DNA of 49,107 nucleotides from a virus (taxonomy: Duplodnaviria > Heunggongvirae > Uroviricota > Caudoviricetes), in IMG/VR virus record IMGVR_UViG_2563366861_000002, one strand, 5' to 3'. The notes beneath the pieces were generated by a model that had not been told where the DNA came from, made no database searches, and saw nothing but the letters and a program-made list of their open reading frames with translations. Both the position numbers and the translations under genes were made by a program. Of this stretch, positions 5,930-48,822 are shown in pieces (positions within the stretch are counted from its first letter, which is position 1; each line of letters opens with the position of its first letter).

Positions 5930-6406
5930 TTAAGTTCCTGTCTTGGTGATGTTCTGGCTTTTCCGTTTTGATTCTTGATTTTTCAGATAGTTAGCTACCT
6001 TCATTTCCATTGCGGCAATGTAGGCGCGAACGTCATGATCAACCCAACTAGGCTCCGTAGCATTTCCAGATAAGATGAAAGCCACAATTGCTCTTTTTTC
6101 ATCAGAGGCGGCTTGATAAAGGCTGTTTATGTCTAAAAGTTCACTTTTTGTATCTGAAGTGGATGGGGTTGGTATGGGGTATTCGTTAAGCCCCCAATGC
6201 TCTGGACCAACCACATCAGAAAAGAAACGCCATAGTTCTGGAAGTTTGTCTTTACTTATCGAACCTTTCTTAATCCAGTCATGGATTGATGGTGGTTGGA
6301 CTTTGAAATGACGTGCGATTTCCGCCTTTGATTTGACGGCTCCTGATGCAATTTTTTTGTTAATGGCCTGCTCTATCGCTCGGCCTAAGTCTTTACCACT
6401 AAGCAT
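5930..6406 (-). CDS. CI-type prophage repressor (RacR-like HTH protein)
   Basis: 158-aa ORF with N-terminal HTH (SKAEIARHFKVQPPSIHDWIKKG); divergent from Cro-like gene; flanked by operator palindromes; resembles my memory of E. coli RacR. Confidence 0.8.
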   Translation of the reverse strand: MLSGKDLGRAIEQAINKKIASGAVKSKAEIARHFKVQPPSIHDWIKKGSISKDKLPELWRFFSDVVGPEHWGLNEYPIPTPSTSDTKSELLDINSLYQAASDEKRAIVAFILSGNATEPSWVDHDVRAYIAAMEMKVANYLKNQESKRKSQNITKTGT

Positions 6407-6458
6407 TGCTTAATAGTCTCCTATGCGCATCGCGTTAGGCAATCCCTACTCTCGATGT

Positions 6459-6503
6459 ATTAGGCATAGCCTATTGACAATTTCATTAGGCTAAGCCTAA
6501 TAT
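6459..6503 (+). promoter_or_regulatory. candidate rightward early promoter PR with operators OR
   Basis: -35 TTGACA (6474-6479), -10 TAATAT (6498-6503); two 15-bp palindromes TTAGGC-N3-GCCTAA at 6460-6474 and 6487-6501 overlap -35 and spacer/-10. Confidence 0.55.
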
Positions 6504-6530
6504 TGTTGCGTGTTTTTTGGAGTTCATTCG

Positions 6531-6854
6531 ATGAAAAAAGATAACTATTCATTCAAACGAGCTTGTGCTGTTGTCGGTGGGCAATCAGCAATGGCTAGGC
6601 TTTTAGGTGTATCTCCTCCAAGCGTAAATCAATGGATCAAAGGTGTACGTCAGTTACCTGCTGAGAGATGTCCTGCGATTGAACGAGCAACAAAAGGTGG
6701 TGTCCTGTGTGAAGAACTTCGTCCTGATGTTGATTGGACATACTTACGACGCTCGTCATGTTATTCGCAGAATATGTCGATGAAGCAACCAAATGACGAA
6801 AACGATCATACCCGAAGCATCAAGAGGCAAATGATTCATGAAAATCAAACATGA
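6531..6854 (+). CDS. Cro/YdaS-like HTH protein
   Basis: ATG 6531 with GGAG RBS; HTH (QSAMARLLGVSPPSVNQWIKG); first gene of rightward operon, position of cro / Rac ydaS. Confidence 0.75.
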   Translation: MKKDNYSFKRACAVVGGQSAMARLLGVSPPSVNQWIKGVRQLPAERCPAIERATKGGVLCEELRPDVDWTYLRRSSCYSQNMSMKQPNDENDHTRSIKRQMIHENQT

Positions 6855-7263
6855 GCACATCCGCATGGCGATGAATGCCTGGGCATACCCTGATGGTGAG
6901 AAAGTTCCTGCAGCTGAAATAGCCCGGACTTATTTCGAACTGGGGATGACGTTCCCTGAACTGTACGACGACAGCCATCCGGAAGCCCTGGCCCGTAATA
7001 CCCAGAAAATTTTCCGTTGGCTGGATAAAGACACCCCTGATGCTGTTGAAAAAATGCAGGCTCTGTTACCGGCGATCGAAAAGGCGATGCCGCCTTTGCT
7101 GGTGGCCCGTATGCGCAGCCACAGTTCTGAATATTACCGTGAGATCGTCGAACGGAGGGATCGGCTGGTGAAGGATGTCGATGATTTTGTTGCGTCAGCG
7201 GTTGTTTTGTATGACCAGATGAATCGCGGCGGCCCGGCAGGGAATGCTGTGGTGATGCACTAA
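6838..7263 (+). CDS. YdaT-like protein (CII-position regulator / putative toxin)
   Basis: 141-aa ORF beginning MKIKHEHI..., matching my recollection of Rac YdaT; follows Cro-like gene. Confidence 0.7.
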   Translation: MKIKHEHIRMAMNAWAYPDGEKVPAAEIARTYFELGMTFPELYDDSHPEALARNTQKIFRWLDKDTPDAVEKMQALLPAIEKAMPPLLVARMRSHSSEYYREIVERRDRLVKDVDDFVASAVVLYDQMNRGGPAGNAVVMH

Positions 7264-7285
7264 AAGCACGGTGTTCGGGGGTTTT

Positions 7286-8248
7286 ATGAGCAGCAAGCTT
7301 CATGGTCTTGTCTGGGAAGGGTGCGCCTTCACCGGCATGATCTTATCCAGGGTGGCGGTTATGGCCCGTCTTGCAGACTACAGCAATGACGAGGGCGTGT
7401 CATGGCCTGCCATTGAAACTATCCGGCGTCAGATCGGTGCAAGAAGTGAATCCACAGTGAAATCGGCTATTGCAGAACTGGCGAAAGAGGGCTGGCTGAC
7501 GAAGGAAGAGCGTAAGGTCGGTGGGCGTAATGTAAGCAATATCTATCGGCTTAATGTGGAAAAACTCGAAGCAGCTGCGGCGGCGGCGCGTGAGTCATAT
7601 AAACCGAAAAGAAAAATTAGCCCGGCAAAAAATGACCCGTTAACAGTTGACCCGTCAAATATTGACCCCTCAACGGTTGACCCGTCAAATTTTGATGGAT
7701 CAACTGTTGATAAAAAACTGCCGATTAGGGGGGCGATGATTGACCCCGATCCGTCAGTATTAAAACCTGATCCGTCAGATAAAAGATCTTCTTGTCCGGA
7801 CGCTTCGCAACCGGACCCGCAGACGGCTGAACAGGATTTTTTAACCCGACACCCTGACGCGGTTGTGTTCAGTGCGAAAAAACGCCAGTGGGGAAGTCAG
7901 GAAGATTTGGTGTGCGCACAGTGGATCTGGGGACGAATCGTGAGTCTTTACGAGCAGGCGGCCAGCGATGATGGCGAGATCACTAGACCGAAAGAACCCA
8001 ACTGGACAGCATGGGCCAATGACGTTCGCACAATGCGGATGCTGGATGGCAGAACTCACAGACAAATTTGTGAAATGTTTGGGCGTCTCCAGCGGGATTC
8101 GTTCTGGGTAAAAAACATCATGAGTCCGGCAAAACTCCGGGAAAAATGGGATGAACTGGTTATCCGCCTGGGGCGTTCGCCTGCGCAGCGTTGCGTGAAT
8201 CACATTTCTGAACCGGACACTGAAATTCCGCCGGGCTTCAGGGGGTAA
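7286..8248 (+). CDS. replication initiation protein (lambda O-like / YdaU-like, winged-helix N-terminus)
   Basis: ~320-aa ORF; N-terminal winged-helix-like region; contains tandem iterons within its coding sequence like lambda O. Confidence 0.75.
   Translation: MSSKLHGLVWEGCAFTGMILSRVAVMARLADYSNDEGVSWPAIETIRRQIGARSESTVKSAIAELAKEGWLTKEERKVGGRNVSNIYRLNVEKLEAAAAAARESYKPKRKISPAKNDPLTVDPSNIDPSTVDPSNFDGSTVDKKLPIRGAMIDPDPSVLKPDPSDKRSSCPDASQPDPQTAEQDFLTRHPDAVVFSAKKRQWGSQEDLVCAQWIWGRIVSLYEQAASDDGEITRPKEPNWTAWANDVRTMRMLDGRTHRQICEMFGRLQRDSFWVKNIMSPAKLREKWDELVIRLGRSPAQRCVNHISEPDTEIPPGFRG
7632..7706. repeat. iteron array (candidate replication origin) inside the O-like gene
   Basis: Five ~15-bp direct repeats: ATGACCCGTTAACAG, TTGACCCGTCAAATA, TTGACCCCTCAACGG, TTGACCCGTCAAATT, TTGATGGATCAACTG, followed by A-rich TTGATAAAAAACTG. 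Confidence 0.55.
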
Positions 8249-8288
8249 GTGTTAATTTCTGGTCATGAGGTAATTTTCAGGAGGGCTT

Positions 8289-8711
8289 GTGGCAAAAGTT
8301 TTTACACAAGAAGAGCGGGAAAAAATTAAAGGGCAGGTTGTTGAACTCGTACGCCAGAGTGGGCGCGAGACGTTACGACAACTGGAAACTAAAACTGGGG
8401 CAACAAGATATCTGATGAGCGTTCTGGCCAGAGAGCTGGTTGCCAGTGGCGATGTATACAACTCTGGTTACGGGTTATTCCCGTCTGAACAGGCGCGTAA
8501 GGACTGGCAAAATGCCCGTAAAAAGCTCTCAAGGGCAAAGCTGAAGAAACCATCTGCGGTTGATCCGGACCTTATCTGGTCATTACCTGACGGAGAAATA
8601 CGTCGCTACGACAGGCGTCAGAACATAATCTGTCGCGAGTGCCGGAAGAGCGAAGTTATGCAGCGCATATTGTCGTTTTATCAGGGTAATTTTCAGAAGG
8701 TGCTGTTGTGA
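8289..8711 (+). CDS. hypothetical protein (replication-module position)
   Basis: 140-aa ORF, GTG start preceded by AGGAGGG RBS; occupies position of lambda P / Rac ydaV but no AAA+ motif seen. Confidence 0.55.
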   Translation: MAKVFTQEEREKIKGQVVELVRQSGRETLRQLETKTGATRYLMSVLARELVASGDVYNSGYGLFPSEQARKDWQNARKKLSRAKLKKPSAVDPDLIWSLPDGEIRRYDRRQNIICRECRKSEVMQRILSFYQGNFQKVLL

Positions 8712-22559: not shown

Positions 22560-23568
22560 TATGGTGCGTATGTGCAACTTTACGCCATTCTTTAGAGCCG
22601 CCAGATTTGTTAGCGCCTAATGATCTTTGGTAAATGTAATCATCCCCCCAACTAAATTTGGAGCCAAAGACTTGATACTCTGGCGAACTAACAAGGGTAG
22701 TACATAAGTTTTTAGTTTGGCCCCATCCATTTCCTTTAACTGCGGTACCTTTTACAAAGATCCATGAGGTATCGTTCGAATATCTCACTGAGACATACTG
22801 AGACATGAAGCGTGGGTCTACGCTCGTAATGGTAGAGCTAGCGGTGGGATAATCACTAAAACTTGGCGTTCTTCCATTGCTAAAATTCTGTACTACGTAC
22901 ATCCAAAGATCGTATTCATGGCGCGGAATATGATGAACTTGATGTTGCGGTATCCCTGCCTGTGATGCCGGGTATGCGGTTGAAGATAAAATCAAGTTTC
23001 TCCACGGAGCTTGGCCTGATAATGTGTTGACCATGCTTAATGCTTGTTGTTTTAAACTATCAGTTGCGTTTTGAATATCTCCAAAATCAATGATTACATC
23101 AATTAAACTAGGATGAATATTTAAGTGGTTAACCAGACTTGTGAATTGGTGCCATGTCTGGGGGGTGATAGACATAGCGAGCCCATTGATTAAGTTGCGT
23201 TGAACAGCATGTATATAGTTTGTTGAATATGCGGGAGAAACAACAGGGATAATTTCCTTACCATTTACTCTAGCATCTTGGATACACATATCTAGAGGAT
23301 GATGGCGGCTCGAACCATGTTTATCTAAATATTTAACATCCAGCAAAACAGGACGATTGGCTTTCCAGGATGCCGCAAGGTTAATACCGAAGTCAGATAA
23401 GTAAGAACTCAAACTCTTCTTGTAGCATTCGTTTTCATAATCCCAGTCTATGTCTGGAATGGTAATGATCGGAGTAAAACCAGAGAGCGTAGTTTGATCT
23501 AAAAGCATCAGAGATTCATATTCAGCAGGCTTCCATTTCAGCTGTGGATAATATTGATGTTGACTCAT
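22501..23568 (-). CDS. uncharacterised 355-aa protein, convergent partner of the nuclease-like gene
   Basis: AT-rich ORF with AAGGAG RBS and promoter-like upstream region; 3' end overlaps 21939-22559 by 59 bp on opposite strand; no catalytic motif recognised by eye. Confidence 0.7.
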   Translation of the reverse strand: MSQHQYYPQLKWKPAEYESLMLLDQTTLSGFTPIITIPDIDWDYENECYKKSLSSYLSDFGINLAASWKANRPVLLDVKYLDKHGSSRHHPLDMCIQDARVNGKEIIPVVSPAYSTNYIHAVQRNLINGLAMSITPQTWHQFTSLVNHLNIHPSLIDVIIDFGDIQNATDSLKQQALSMVNTLSGQAPWRNLILSSTAYPASQAGIPQHQVHHIPRHEYDLWMYVVQNFSNGRTPSFSDYPTASSTITSVDPRFMSQYVSVRYSNDTSWIFVKGTAVKGNGWGQTKNLCTTLVSSPEYQVFGSKFSWGDDYIYQRSLGANKSGGSKEWRKVAHTHHITLVVRQLYWLAQTQPAKP

Positions 23569-44213: not shown

Positions 44214-47189
44214 ATGACAGTAAAAATTTCTGGCGTGCTTAAAGATGGCACAGGAAAACCAGTACAGAACTGCACCATTGTGCTGAAGGCCAGACGAACC
44301 AGCAGCACGGTGGTGGTGAACACGGTGGCCTCTGAAAATCCGGATGAAGCCGGACGTTACAGCATGGATGTTGAGCATGGTCAGTACAGCGTCACCCTGC
44401 TGGTTGAAGGTTTTCCGCCTTCACATGCCGGGACCATTACCGTCTATGAAGGTTCCAGACCAGGTACGCTGAATGATTTTCTCGGTGCCATGACGGAGGA
44501 TGATGTCCGACCGGAGGCACTGCGCCGCTTTGAGCAGATGGTGGAAGAGGTGTCACGTAACGCCTCCGCGGTTGCACAGAATACGGCAGCCGCGAAAAAA
44601 TCAGCCAGCGATGCCAGTGCATCAGCCAGCGAGGCGGCAACTCATGCAACCGATGCTGCAGCCTCAGCACGTGCCGCCAGCACGTCAGCCGGACAGGCCG
44701 CGTCGTCGGCTCAGTCAGCGTCTTCCAGCGCAGGAACGGCATCGACAAAGGCCCGTGAAGCAGCAAAAAGTGCTGCTGCTGCAGAGTCATCAAAAAGCGC
44801 GGCAGTTACCAGCGCCAGTGCCGCGAAAACGTCAGAAACGAATGCCGCAGCGTCACAACAATCAGCAGCCACTTCTGCATCCACCGCGACCACGAAAGCG
44901 TCAGAAGCAGCCACTTCAGCACGGGATGCGTCGGCTTCAAAAGAGGCGGCAAAATCATCAGAAACGAACGCAGCCTCGAGCGCCAGCAGCGCAGCTTCCT
45001 CGGCAACGGCGGCAGCAAATTCTGCGAAGGCGGCAAAAACGTCCGAGACGAACGCCAGGTCTTCTGAAACGGCAGCGGGACAGAGCGCCTCAGCTGCGGC
45101 AGACTCAAAAACAGCGGCTGCATTATCTGCCAGTGCCGCGTCAACAAGTGCCGGGCAGGCCTCAGCCAGTGCCACCGCCGCCGGAAAATCGGCAGAAAGT
45201 GCTGCATCGTCTGCTTCAACAGCCACAACGAAGGCTGGCGAAGCCGCTGTACAGGCCAGCGCAGCAGCGAGGTCTGCTTCCGCAGCGAAGACATCCGAGA
45301 CGAACGCGAAAGCGTCGGAAACCAGCGCAGAATCCTCAAAAACGGCTGCCGCATCGTCCGCCAGTTCGGCGGCGTCATCGGCATCATCTGCGTCTGCTTC
45401 AAAAGATGAGGCGACCAGACAGGCGTCAGCAGCAAAGGGCAGCGCCACGACGGCATCCACGAAGGCGACAGAGGCAGCTGGCAGTGCGACGGCGGCAGCT
45501 CAGAGCAAAAGTACGGCGGAATCCGCGGCAACGCGCGCTGAGACAGCGGCAAAACGGGCAGAGGATATTGCATCCGCCGTGGCGCTTGAGGATGCGAGCA
45601 CGACGAAAAAGGGGATAGTTCAGCTCAGCAGTGCGACTAACAGCACTTCCGAGTCACTGGCGGCAACGCCAAAAGCCGTTAAGGCCGCGTATGAGCTGGC
45701 TAACGGGAAATACACCGCACAGGATGCAACGACAGCACAGAAAGGGATAGTTCAGCTTAGCAACGCGACCAACAGCACATCTGAAATGCTGGCGGCAACG
45801 CCAAAGTCGGTAAAGGCAGCCTATGACCTTGCTAACGGGAAATATACTGCTCAGGACGCTACGACAGCACAAAAAGGAATTGTCCAGCTCAGTAGTGCAA
45901 CCAACAGCGCATCTGAAACGCTTGCCGCGACACCGAAAGCAGTGAAAGCAGCTAATGATAATGCGAATGGTCGGGTACCTTCTGCCCGTAAGGTGAATGG
46001 TAAGGCGCTTTCAGCGGATATAACACTGACGCCGAAAGATATTGGTACGCTTAACTCAACAACAATGTCATTCAGCGGTGGTGCTGGTTGGTTCAAATTA
46101 GCAACGGTAACCATGCCACAGGCGAGTTCTGTTGTTTCAATTACGTTGATTGGTGGTGCGGGATTTAACGTGGGGTCACCTCAACAGGCAGGTATATCTG
46201 AACTTGTTTTGCGTGCAGGTAATGGTAATCCGAAGGGGATTACTGGTGCTTTATGGCAGCGCACATCGACAGGGTTTACAAATTTTGCCTGGGTCAATAC
46301 ATCTGGTGATACTTACGATATTTACGTTGCAATCGGAAATTATGCGACTGGTGTAAATATTCAATGGGATTATACCAGTAATGCCAGCGTGACGATTCAT
46401 ACGTCACCAGCATATTCTGCTAATAAGCCGGAAGGGTTAACGGACGGTACAGTTTATTCACTCTATACGCCATCAGAGCAGTTTTATCCGCCTGGCGCAC
46501 CAATCCCGTGGCCATCAGATACCGTTCCGTCTGGCTATGCCCTGATGCAGGGGCAGACTTTTGACAAATCTGCATACCCGAAACTTGCAGCCGCTTATCC
46601 GTCAGGCGTGATCCCTGATATGCGTGGCTGGACGATTAAGGGCAAACCCGCCAGTGGTCGTGCCGTATTGTCTCAGGAACAGGACGGCATTAAATCGCAC
46701 ACCCACAGCGCCAGCGCATCCAGTACGGATTTGGGGACGAAAAACACATCGTCGTTTGATTACGGAACCAAATCCACGAATAACACCGGGGCGCATACGC
46801 ACAGTCTGAGTGGCTCTACGGGGTCTGCCGGTGATCATACTCATGGTAATGGTATTCGTTGGCCAGGAGGCGGCGGTTCTGCGTTAGCATTTTATGATGG
46901 CGGTGGGTTCACTTATGTCCAGGATTCACAGTATCAAGTAAGCCCGGGGACTTCTTCCCGTAGATCGTATTATCAACGTATTCAGACACAGTCAGCAGGT
47001 GCTCATACCCACTCGCTGTCTGGTACTGCAGCAAGTTCTGGCGCACATGCACATACTGTAGGTATTGGTGCGCATACGCACTCCGTTGCGATTGGTTCAC
47101 ATGGACACACCATCACCGTTAACGCTGCTGGTAACGCGGAAAACACCGTCAAAAACATCGCATTTAACTATATTGTGAGGCTTGCATAA
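44214..47189 (+). CDS. stf: side tail fiber protein Stf
   Basis: 991 aa; N-terminus near-identical to lambda Stf ([20 protein letters not shown]); Ala/Ser-rich low-complexity region, three ~42-aa tandem fiber repeats, C-terminal His-rich receptor-binding region. Confidence 0.9.
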
Positions 47190-47773
47190 TGGCATTCAGA
47201 ATGAGTGAACAAGCACGGACCATAAAAATTTATAATCTGCTGGCCGGAACTAATGAATTTATTGGTGAAGGTGACGCATATATTCCGCCTCATACAGGTC
47301 TGCCAGCAAACAGTACCGATATTGCACCACCAGATATTCCTGCTGGCTTTGTGGCTGTTTTCAACAGTGATGAGGCATCGTGGCATCTCGTTGAAGACCA
47401 TCGGGGTAAAACGGTTTATGACGTAGCGTCAGGGGACGAGTTATTTATTTCTGAACTCGGTCCGTTACCGGAAAATGTTACCTGGTTATCGCCGGAAGGG
47501 GAGTTTCAGAAGTGGAACGGCACAGCCTGGGTGAAGGATACGGAAGCAGAAAAAATGTTCCGGATCCGGGAGGCGGAAGAAACAAAAAACAACCTGATGC
47601 AGGTAGCCAGTGAGCATATTGCGCCGCTTCAGGATGCTGCAGATCTGGAAATTGCAACGGAGGAAGAAACCTCATTGCTGGAAGCCTGGAAAAAGTATCG
47701 GGTGTTGCTGAACCGTGTTGATACATCAACTGCACCTGATATTGAGTGGCCTACGAACCCTGTCAGGGAGTAA
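47189..47773 (+). CDS. tfa: tail fiber assembly protein Tfa
   Basis: 194 aa; [17 protein letters not shown]... matches lambda Tfa; start overlaps stf stop. Confidence 0.85.
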
Positions 47774-48552: not shown

Positions 48553-48822
48553 ATGCTGCCGCAGCATAGCGATATTGAAATAGCCTGGTATGCTTCGATA
48601 CAGCAGGAGCCGAATGGCTGGAAGACCGTCACCACACAGTTCTACATCCAGGAATTCAGTGAGTATATTGCGCCACTGCAGGATGCTGTAGATCTGGAAA
48701 TCGCAACGGAGGAAGAAAGATCGTTGCTGGAGGCATGGAATAAATATCGGGTATTGTTGAATCGTGTTGATACATCAACTGCACCTGATATTGAGTGGCC
48801 TGCAAATCCTGTCAGGGAGTAA
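48553..48822 (+). pseudogene. tfa-like fragment (duplicated 3' portion of tail fiber assembly gene)
   Basis: 89-aa ORF whose C-terminal ~50 aa repeat the tfa C-terminus; DNA about 205 bp similar to 47617-47822 including downstream hairpin. Confidence 0.5.

Follow-up and report, generated by a model that had tools for sequence, protein, structure and literature searches.

The 49,107-nucleotide stretch analyzed in this study (one strand of the IMG/VR virus record IMGVR_UViG_2563366861_000002, Caudoviricetes; hereafter the window) represents a lambdoid prophage, and we focused on its replication initiator gene and on an array of short repeats lying inside that gene (Table 1). We regard positions 7583-7816 as very probably the cis-acting replication origin of this prophage, embedded in the codons of its own initiator gene that encode a disordered linker. 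A preliminary description, made from the letters alone, had pointed to repeats at 7632-7760 within an O-like gene as a candidate origin comparable to lambda ori inside gene O, and had recognized no lambda P or DnaC-like helicase loader downstream. The conservation of the element at the DNA level and the comparison with lambda support the candidate, and it is from these two that we infer the function in replication.

The array spans 7631-7720 and comprises five 15-bp units and a half unit (R1 to R6) at exact 15-bp phasing, all inside the initiator gene, in agreement with the phased 15-bp repeats described earlier. The wording "direct repeats" needs to be amended, as the phasing holds but each of the units R1-R5 is itself a dyad, TGAY-NN-RTCA, and R5 is inverted. 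In the open reading frame (ORF; 7271/7286-8248), the array is translated into NDPLT VDPSN IDPST VDPSN FDGST VDKKL, which is the repeated peptide anticipated from the letters. On the other hand, the A-rich stretch said to come right after the array is merely the degenerate sixth unit, to which the A6 run at 7710-7715 belongs. Tandem Repeats Finder (TRF) detected periods of 15 (5 copies) and 30 (2.5-3 copies, 80-84% matches, score 96-101) over 7612-7710, and a separate repeat search returned a 15/15/15 spacing and the whole array as a 33-nt imperfect inverted repeat. The 12-bp palindrome TTGAY-NN-RTCAA was found five times in the window against 0.33 expected, a count that none of 100 shuffles reached, and three of the five occurrences lie in the array. 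Likewise, all seven window matches to TTGACCCGTCAA with two or fewer mismatches fall within 7632-7703. The repeats are confirmed to be real and non-random. The other two matches to the 12-bp palindrome are identical to each other (TTGATACATCAA) and reside at 47718-47729 and 48767-48778, 1049 bp apart.

To what extent the array is conserved was assessed with 80 loci encoding homologs of the N-terminal domain (N-domain) of the initiator in species-representative genomes, of which about 75 contain full-length genes; the genera include Escherichia, Edwardsiella, Erwinia, Morganella, Providencia, Proteus, Yersinia, and Enterobacter. Every full-length homolog examined has a 15-bp array, encoding pentapeptides, directly after the winged helix, and the number of units varies from 2 to about 8 in 15-bp steps. 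Within Escherichia coli, the unit number shifts by five residues, giving proteins of 320, 315, 310, and 305 amino acids. In 357 units of the homologs, Ser is encoded by TCA in 85% of cases (16% elsewhere in the same genes), a T precedes the Asp codon in 85% (22% elsewhere), and GAC accounts for 66% of the codons for D/E (20% elsewhere), with T(C/T)TGAC-N-C-N-TCAAAA being the DNA consensus of the units. The normalized synonymous entropy calculated from 75 homologs is 0.25 in codons 99-177, codons 2-98 and 178-200 having values of 0.82 and 0.73, respectively (Mann-Whitney p 1e-22, a value overstating independence as the homologs are phylogenetically related), and the fraction of identical residues encoded by the same codon is 0.84 against 0.42 and 0.48 in the two flanks. 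The amino-acid identity in codons 99-177 (0.57) is, in contrast, lower than that in the N-domain (0.76). Moreover, the site is found in either orientation without a change of reading frame: TGAC-CC-NTCA encodes D-P-S, while E-G-S or D-G-S results from its complement, TGAG-GG-GTCA or TGATGGATCA, as seen in unit R5 and in two of the homologous loci (L005 and L009). Because the synonymous sites are frozen, the amino-acid identity is lower and both orientations are in use, the constraint acts on the DNA rather than on the encoded peptide. The preliminary description would have been refuted by a lack of DNA-level conservation of the repeats among homologs; the repeats proved to be conserved. Recent horizontal homogenization of the segment, which we also considered, is ruled out by the amino-acid identity being below that of the N-domain.

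The N-domain and the array travel together, albeit the C-terminal domains (C-domains) joined to them vary (lambda-O type, Phg_2220_C type, and others). In phage HannyBb and its relatives, a C-domain with 88% nucleotide identity to that of the window is joined to an unrelated N-domain, and these phages possess, at the equivalent position (L088 3845-4000 in the HannyBb initiator gene), their own 23-bp repeats with GGTCAAAATG followed by three ACAGAGAATACA repeats. The array together with the N-terminal half of the gene was found in 1520 of the 5426 complete E. coli genomes, including O157:H7 strains, and the gene plus the array was at least 99% identical in 1371.

The initiator consists of an N-terminal winged helix, a disordered linker containing the candidate origin, a lambda-O-type C-domain, and a DnaT-like tail. 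It matches PHROG 391 ("replication initiation O-like") with an E-value of 2.2e-115, residues 1-320 being aligned with profile positions 1-298 of 298. The Pfam matches are HTH_36 (residues 25-71, E 2e-6) and, weakly, DnaD_N. No match was obtained with Phage_rep_O (PF04492), the family of the lambda O N-domain, which lambda O itself matches with an E-value of 5.7e-36, and none in Pfam with the Rep_3-type profile of plasmid initiators. In the AlphaFold2 model, built with a 24-sequence alignment, the N-domain (predicted local distance difference test, pLDDT, 72-89) contains helices at residues 3-15, 20-31, 43-50, and 55-67, a beta hairpin at 71-89, and a helix at 91-104. Residues 112-180 are modeled as disordered (pLDDT about 35), and the array lies within that stretch, in the linker between the folded domains 1-104 and 205-295. 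The C-domain is formed by helices in residues 205-295 (pLDDT 70-89), and the tail, residues 300-320, is disordered. A Foldseek search with the whole model retrieved only generic winged helices of the MarR/PadR/ArsR type, covering about 100 residues of the N-domain with weak E-values, and these matches were left out of the family assignment. By tblastn, residues 153-304 showed 35-39% identity to lambda O and phi80 gene 15 with E-values of about 1e-18 (lambda O, 35%, E 1e-18, residues 153-300; phi80 gp15, 36%, E 9e-19), and the C-domain further matched PHROGs 277, 2514, and 4880 (O-like, DnaD-like, and replisome organizer). One homolog of the initiator bears the source name "Replication protein 15".

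The established lambdoid origin is made up of iterons, of which lambda has four and Stx phages six, and an AT-rich tract, all located centrally in gene O (PMC7466680). As with the candidate in the window, lambda ori occupies a central position in the initiator gene, with the DNA-binding N-domain encoded to one side and the recruiting C-domain to the other; its first iteron starts at codon 117 of O, and the array of the window starts at codon 116. The origins of lambda and Stx phages are direct repeats with internal dyads that vary in number among relatives, as does the array family described here, and A-rich DNA follows the array just as an A-rich tract follows the four lambda iterons. There are clear differences, too. 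The lambda iterons are about 19 bp long and roughly 24 bp apart while the 15-bp units abut one another, the N-domain is of the HTH_36 rather than the Phage_rep_O type, lambda O ends with the W-containing tail NTDWIYGV instead of a DnaT-like one, and the window differs from lambda in having two conserved GATC boxes and in having neither a strongly AT-rich 40-bp tract nor a P gene. The likeness to lambda ori claimed before stands for the position and the homologous C-domain, with the qualifications that the N-domain is of another family and that the flanks are only moderately A+T-rich. In phi80, gp15 shares the C-domain with the window initiator but its N-domain aligns with lambda O, and the phage has the P-like gene 14, which has no counterpart in the window. 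In iteron plasmids of the RepA, RepE, and pi types, a winged-helix initiator binds tandem iterons beside an unwinding element. The iterons of these plasmids are located outside the gene, whereas the array of the window is intragenic, with no Rep_3 match and no significant DnaA boxes. Altogether, we place the element mechanistically in the class of lambda-type origins embedded in the initiator gene.

The stretch under constraint is wider than the 7632-7760 initially proposed. Among the 30-mers of 7200-8300, 7591-7620 has the lowest stability (dG -33.2, compared with a 99th percentile of -32.65 over the whole window); the second and third in rank are 7687-7716 and 7758-7787, and all three are inside 7583-7816. 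To the right of the array, the repeat search found two GATC boxes, CCCGATCCGTCAG at 7745-7757 and CCTGATCCGTCAG at 7766-7778, the second of which is also an iteron-like TGAY-NN-RTCA site (TGATCCGTCA). In 76 homologs, the consensus sequences of the boxes are GGGGATCCGTCAGTAAAT and GATCC(A/G)TCAGATAAAAAA, and conservation at their synonymous sites amounts to 100% for GAT, 96% for CCG, and 97% for GTA. The boxes are separated by 24 bp in 68 of the 76 homologs and by 21 bp in the window. Four GATC sites are present in 7698-7788, compared with 3.2 per kb in the window. Clusters of GATC are a feature of the P1 oriR heptamers and the oriC 13-mers. In 14 of the 43 species loci with an initiator ending in GFRG (see below), a gene for a Dam-type N6-adenine methyltransferase, recognized by sequence motif, overlaps the initiator stop by about 4 bp (L025, L026, L028, L034-L037, L044, L048, L052, L058, L060, L062, and L071; such a gene is also present at L170 35064-35951), and Pfam PF05869 was confirmed for the methyltransferase of L025. 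Given both the conserved GATC boxes and how often a Dam-type methylase gene follows the initiator, the firing of the origin may be methylation-dependent.

Other signals were searched for with negative results. DnaA boxes (TTWTNCACA) occur at chance level in the window, with 5 found and 4.4 expected; TTTTCCACA at 7555-7563 on the minus strand, whose neighboring codons differ in the homologs, is not above chance, and DnaA boxes were rejected as a part of the origin. A perfect consensus DnaA box, TTATCCACA, was seen at 23543-23551 on the minus strand. A structured or antisense RNA was rejected as well, Rfam yielding only sub-threshold chance matches (mir-250, 21 bits against a gathering score of 58 bits), and no promoter-like or terminator-like site was found in 7200-8300.

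The absence of a loader gene noted previously was corroborated. The product of 8289-8711, for which a search for loader homology had been suggested, is not a helicase loader and belongs to DUF977 (LygF/YdaW-like) and PHROG 142; neither lambda P (PF06992) nor the DnaC/IstB AAA+ family was matched in Pfam, PHROGs, NCBIfam, or PDB, and the protein has no NCBIfam match of any kind and no PDB relative. In the annotation of an identical locus by the Prokaryotic Genome Annotation Pipeline (PGAP), no helicase or loader gene is present between the repressor and Q. Among relatives, genuine loaders do match the profiles, L001 having IstB_IS21 and L005 Phage_lambda_P. Of 79 IMG/VR contigs whose C-domain is near-identical, about half have the gene order O, DnaC-like, DUF1627, and DUF977, and the other half O and DUF977; L001 and L002 also carry a DnaC-like gene after the initiator. 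In HannyBb, mEp460, and PhiR42_1, which share the C-domain, the gene after the initiator is DUF977 and a loader is absent. According to the part of PMC12315714 (Genome Res 2025) drawn on here, phage LLS as well as 34 of 314 lambdoid phages have an O homolog but no gene for a helicase or loader, and the replication of such O-only modules is described there as not understood. The O protein of LLS (PQ299149) has an N-domain of the same family as the window initiator, an SDASK array (TCTGACGCATCAAAA and similar units), both GATC boxes, and the C-terminus KIPEGFRG, and a methyltransferase gene follows O. LLS thus shares the N-domain family, the 15-bp array, the GATC boxes, the IPEGFRG tail, and the lack of loader and helicase with the window, but differs in its Phg_2220_C C-domain, as opposed to the lambda-O type, and in the DNA methyltransferase gene standing where the window has DUF977. 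Because LLS forms plaques on K-12, the O-only module works in a viable phage. SfIV, with the same N-domain type as the window, is also viable with O only. Our search of the literature on the origin of this initiator family, DUF977, and SfII/SfIV replication found nothing relevant, PMC12315714 not having been searched for origin, repeats, or tail.

The last 21 residues of the initiator, AQRCVNHISEPDTEIPPGFRG, match positions 159-179 of 179 in NCBIfam NF002770 (primosomal protein DnaT) and are identical to the C-terminal end of E. coli DnaT at 14 of 21 residues, including the terminal SEPDxxIPPGFRG. The same end of DnaT is matched in the PDB chains 2ru8_A, 6aep_A, and 9zbt_D. The likeness to DnaT is limited to this segment, and the rest of the initiator is unrelated; the whole protein scores 16.8 bits against NF002770, for which the cut-off is 201 bits. 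The database label "primosomal protein I" given to relatives has no basis other than the tail. The extreme C-terminus, SEPDTEIPPGFRG, is a copy of the DnaT tail, and related endings are found at L170 35035-35064 and L003 2590-2628. IPxGFRG ends three otherwise unrelated contexts, namely DnaT, the lambda-O-type C-domain, and Phg_2220_C (as in LLS). We compared tails and neighboring genes in loci L005-L081, L001, L002, and L089-L168. Of the 43 species loci with GFRG tails, none has a P-like gene next to the initiator, and the genes found there encode PerC-like winged-helix proteins, Dam-type or other methylases, and unknowns. In contrast, W-containing tails (HWNSPEAWENTL and similar ones, resembling NTDWIYGV of lambda) were found at seven loci, all of which have Phage_lambda_P as the next gene. 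The DnaT-like tail is thus associated with modules without P. In E. coli relatives, the initiator with a GFRG tail is sometimes followed by a DnaC-like gene. In the host, dnaC comes after dnaT in gene order, and an interaction between DnaT and DnaC has been suspected but not documented (PMC5778457). In L061, an uncultured Serratia metagenome-assembled genome, the initiator ends with GGTDDDFI, reminiscent of the acidic tip of SSB, and a DnaC-like gene comes next; this ending is possibly another swap of the docking tail.

If 7583-7816 is the origin, the following series of events can be envisaged. Dimers of the N-domain would bind the TGAY-NN-RTCA dyads, that is, the five and a half packed sites and the iteron-like GATC boxes to their right, and would build a nucleoprotein complex resembling the O-some. 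The complex might then destabilize the adjacent DNA, which is A-rich, of low stability, and contains GATC. Since the phage encodes neither loader nor helicase, the lambda-O-type C-domain and the DnaT-like tail would bring the DnaB helicase-loading machinery of the host directly; we infer that the tail is the docking peptide for this machinery. A further step, which we put forward tentatively and hold to be somewhat less likely than its opposite, is that IPxGFRG is a portable docking motif by which O-only initiators mimic DnaT and hijack host loading by DnaB-DnaC (or the PriA-primosome) at a sequence-specific origin.

Several points weigh against the interpretation of the element as an active origin with a docking tail, in addition to the shared ancestry of the homologs mentioned above. 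A lambda-like 40-bp tract with 75-80% AT is not evident, the flanks having a GC content of 0.38-0.45 and being moderately A+T-rich, and at the 15-bp spacing, much tighter than that in lambda, a dimer on each site would have little space. No description of a role of the DnaT tail was found in PMC13377028 (preprimosome structure) or PMC5778457. About a third of the loader-less homologs bear other tails, of the IWK/IWQ type, so that docking by the tail is not the sole route. Finally, the window prophage is without the DnaC-like and DUF1627 genes of the long form of the module, and could be replication-impaired because these genes are lacking. The last point can be extended to the idea that the element descends from an origin but no longer works in the window prophage, being a decaying remnant deprived of its loader gene, as the DnaC-like gene present in about half of the 79 related contigs and in L001 and L002 might suggest. 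Nevertheless, the short form, with the same C-domain and tail, is found in the isolated phages HannyBb, mEp460, and PhiR42_1, LLS and SfIV, which have O only, are viable, the gene and the array are intact in the 1371 E. coli genomes counted above, and DnaC is supplied by the host. We therefore consider such decay very unlikely.

The repeats could also be a by-product of a low-complexity flexible linker, in which DPSxx pentapeptides arose by slippage and the DNA serves no function in cis. The linker is predicted to be disordered and the copy number does change in whole units, as slippage would have it, but synonymous sites are frozen where amino acids vary, each unit is a dyad in the DNA, which is meaningless for a peptide, one DNA site gives different peptides in its two orientations, and the non-repetitive GATC boxes are conserved at third codon positions across genera. 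The codon analysis and the two site orientations largely refute any explanation based on the peptide only, and we find slippage hardly credible. It is somewhat easier to imagine that the N-domain binds the element for a main purpose other than firing an origin, for instance as an autoregulatory operator or roadblock, a handcuffing site for copy control, a centromere-like site, or a joint for module exchange. The switch from one C-domain to another falls immediately downstream of the conserved stretch, and it is close to the array that megablast homology to other phages breaks off, so that the element does lie at a mosaic joint; closely spaced palindrome arrays are also known from plasmid centromeres, and one of the Foldseek matches is a centromere-binding winged helix (4rs8). 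However, the C-domain and PHROG 391 mark the protein as an O-family initiator, the array takes the same position as lambda ori, and nothing else resembling an origin was noticed in the replication module. A partition site is not needed by a prophage that integrates (both int and xis are present). A joint for recombination would be compatible with being an origin, and recent exchange alone does not explain the pattern because low amino-acid identity coexists with high synonymous identity. We judge this set of alternatives unlikely, albeit less so than a remnant or slippage, and retain the origin as the explanation of the element.

Table 1. Coordinates of the candidate origin, the initiator gene, and the neighboring features in the window.
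Feature	Position	Strand	Basis or remark
Replication initiator gene, 320 aa	7286..8248	+	ORF; PGAP start 7286; PHROG 391; HTH_36; AlphaFold2 layout
N-terminal winged-helix DNA-binding domain, residues 1-104, presumed iteron reader	7286..7597	+	AlphaFold2, Foldseek
Candidate origin, stretch under DNA-level constraint, codons 99-177	7583..7816	.	Synonymous-codon entropy, 75 homologs
A-rich low-stability left flank of the array	7591..7630	.	30-mer stability; AT skew +0.5
R1	7631		Unit AATGACCCGTTAACA; core TGAY-NN-RTCA 7633-7642
R2	7646		Unit GTTGACCCGTCAAAT; core 7648-7657
R3	7661		Unit ATTGACCCCTCAACG; core 7663-7672
R4	7676		Unit GTTGACCCGTCAAAT, identical to R2; core 7678-7687
R5	7691		Unit TTTGATGGATCAACT; core 7693-7702; inverted orientation relative to the other units
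R6	7706		GTTGATAAAAAACTG; half unit, degenerate
Two conserved GATC boxes, A-rich tail, third GATC at 7785	7745..7788	.	Candidate unwinding or methylation-sensitive element
Lambda-O-type C-terminal helical domain, about residues 180-297	7823..8176	+	Alignment with lambda O and phi80 gp15; AlphaFold2
DnaT-like tail, residues 300-320, presumed host-factor docking peptide	8183..8245	+	NF002770, PDB chains, AlphaFold2 disorder
DUF977 (LygF/YdaW-like) gene	8289..8711	+	Pfam DUF977 E 1.5e-31; PHROG 142 "Ren-like exclusion protein" E 2.8e-47
Immunity/early control region	5930..7263	.	Pfam/PHROG matches; PGAP names in the identical locus
RacR-like repressor	5930-6406	-	Early control region
YdaS/Cro-like gene	about 6531-6854	+	Early control region
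YdaT/CII-like gene	6838-7263	+	Early control region

The identical locus of E. coli adjoins ompW. Its gene order in the PGAP annotation is int, xis, exonuclease, and dicB, then racR, the Cro/YdaS-like and YdaT/CII-like genes, and the initiator, followed by DUF977, small genes, hokD, DUF968, rusA, Q, and the lysis genes. Rightward early transcription would pass through the candidate origin. In 6510-7263, the genes named "toxin YdaS" and "toxin YdaT" by Pfam occupy the positions of cro and cII of lambda and also match P22_Cro and PHROG 163 ("CII-like transcriptional activator"); because of the positions and these matches, the "toxin" names look misleading here. Apart from the replication module, a 132-bp tandem repeat (2.6 copies, 78% matches, TRF score 405) was detected at 45607-45952, presumably inside a coding region.

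Iterons within an O-like gene are in themselves unsurprising to a specialist. What the present analysis adds is a candidate origin of roughly 230 bp, now defined for a whole class of lambdoid phages with a common yet unstudied module, relatives of which, initiator plus array, occur across Enterobacterales. Frozen synonymous sites within a disordered linker may serve as a signature for origins elsewhere, and the origin together with its initiator is a potential compact replicon or a marker of replication-competent prophages. The observation on the DnaT tail offers a testable idea of how O-only lambdoid phages recruit a helicase, which is an open question in the part of PMC12315714 drawn on here. 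If true, the portable motif would explain replication without genes for P, DnaC, or DnaB, and would give the DnaT tail a function.

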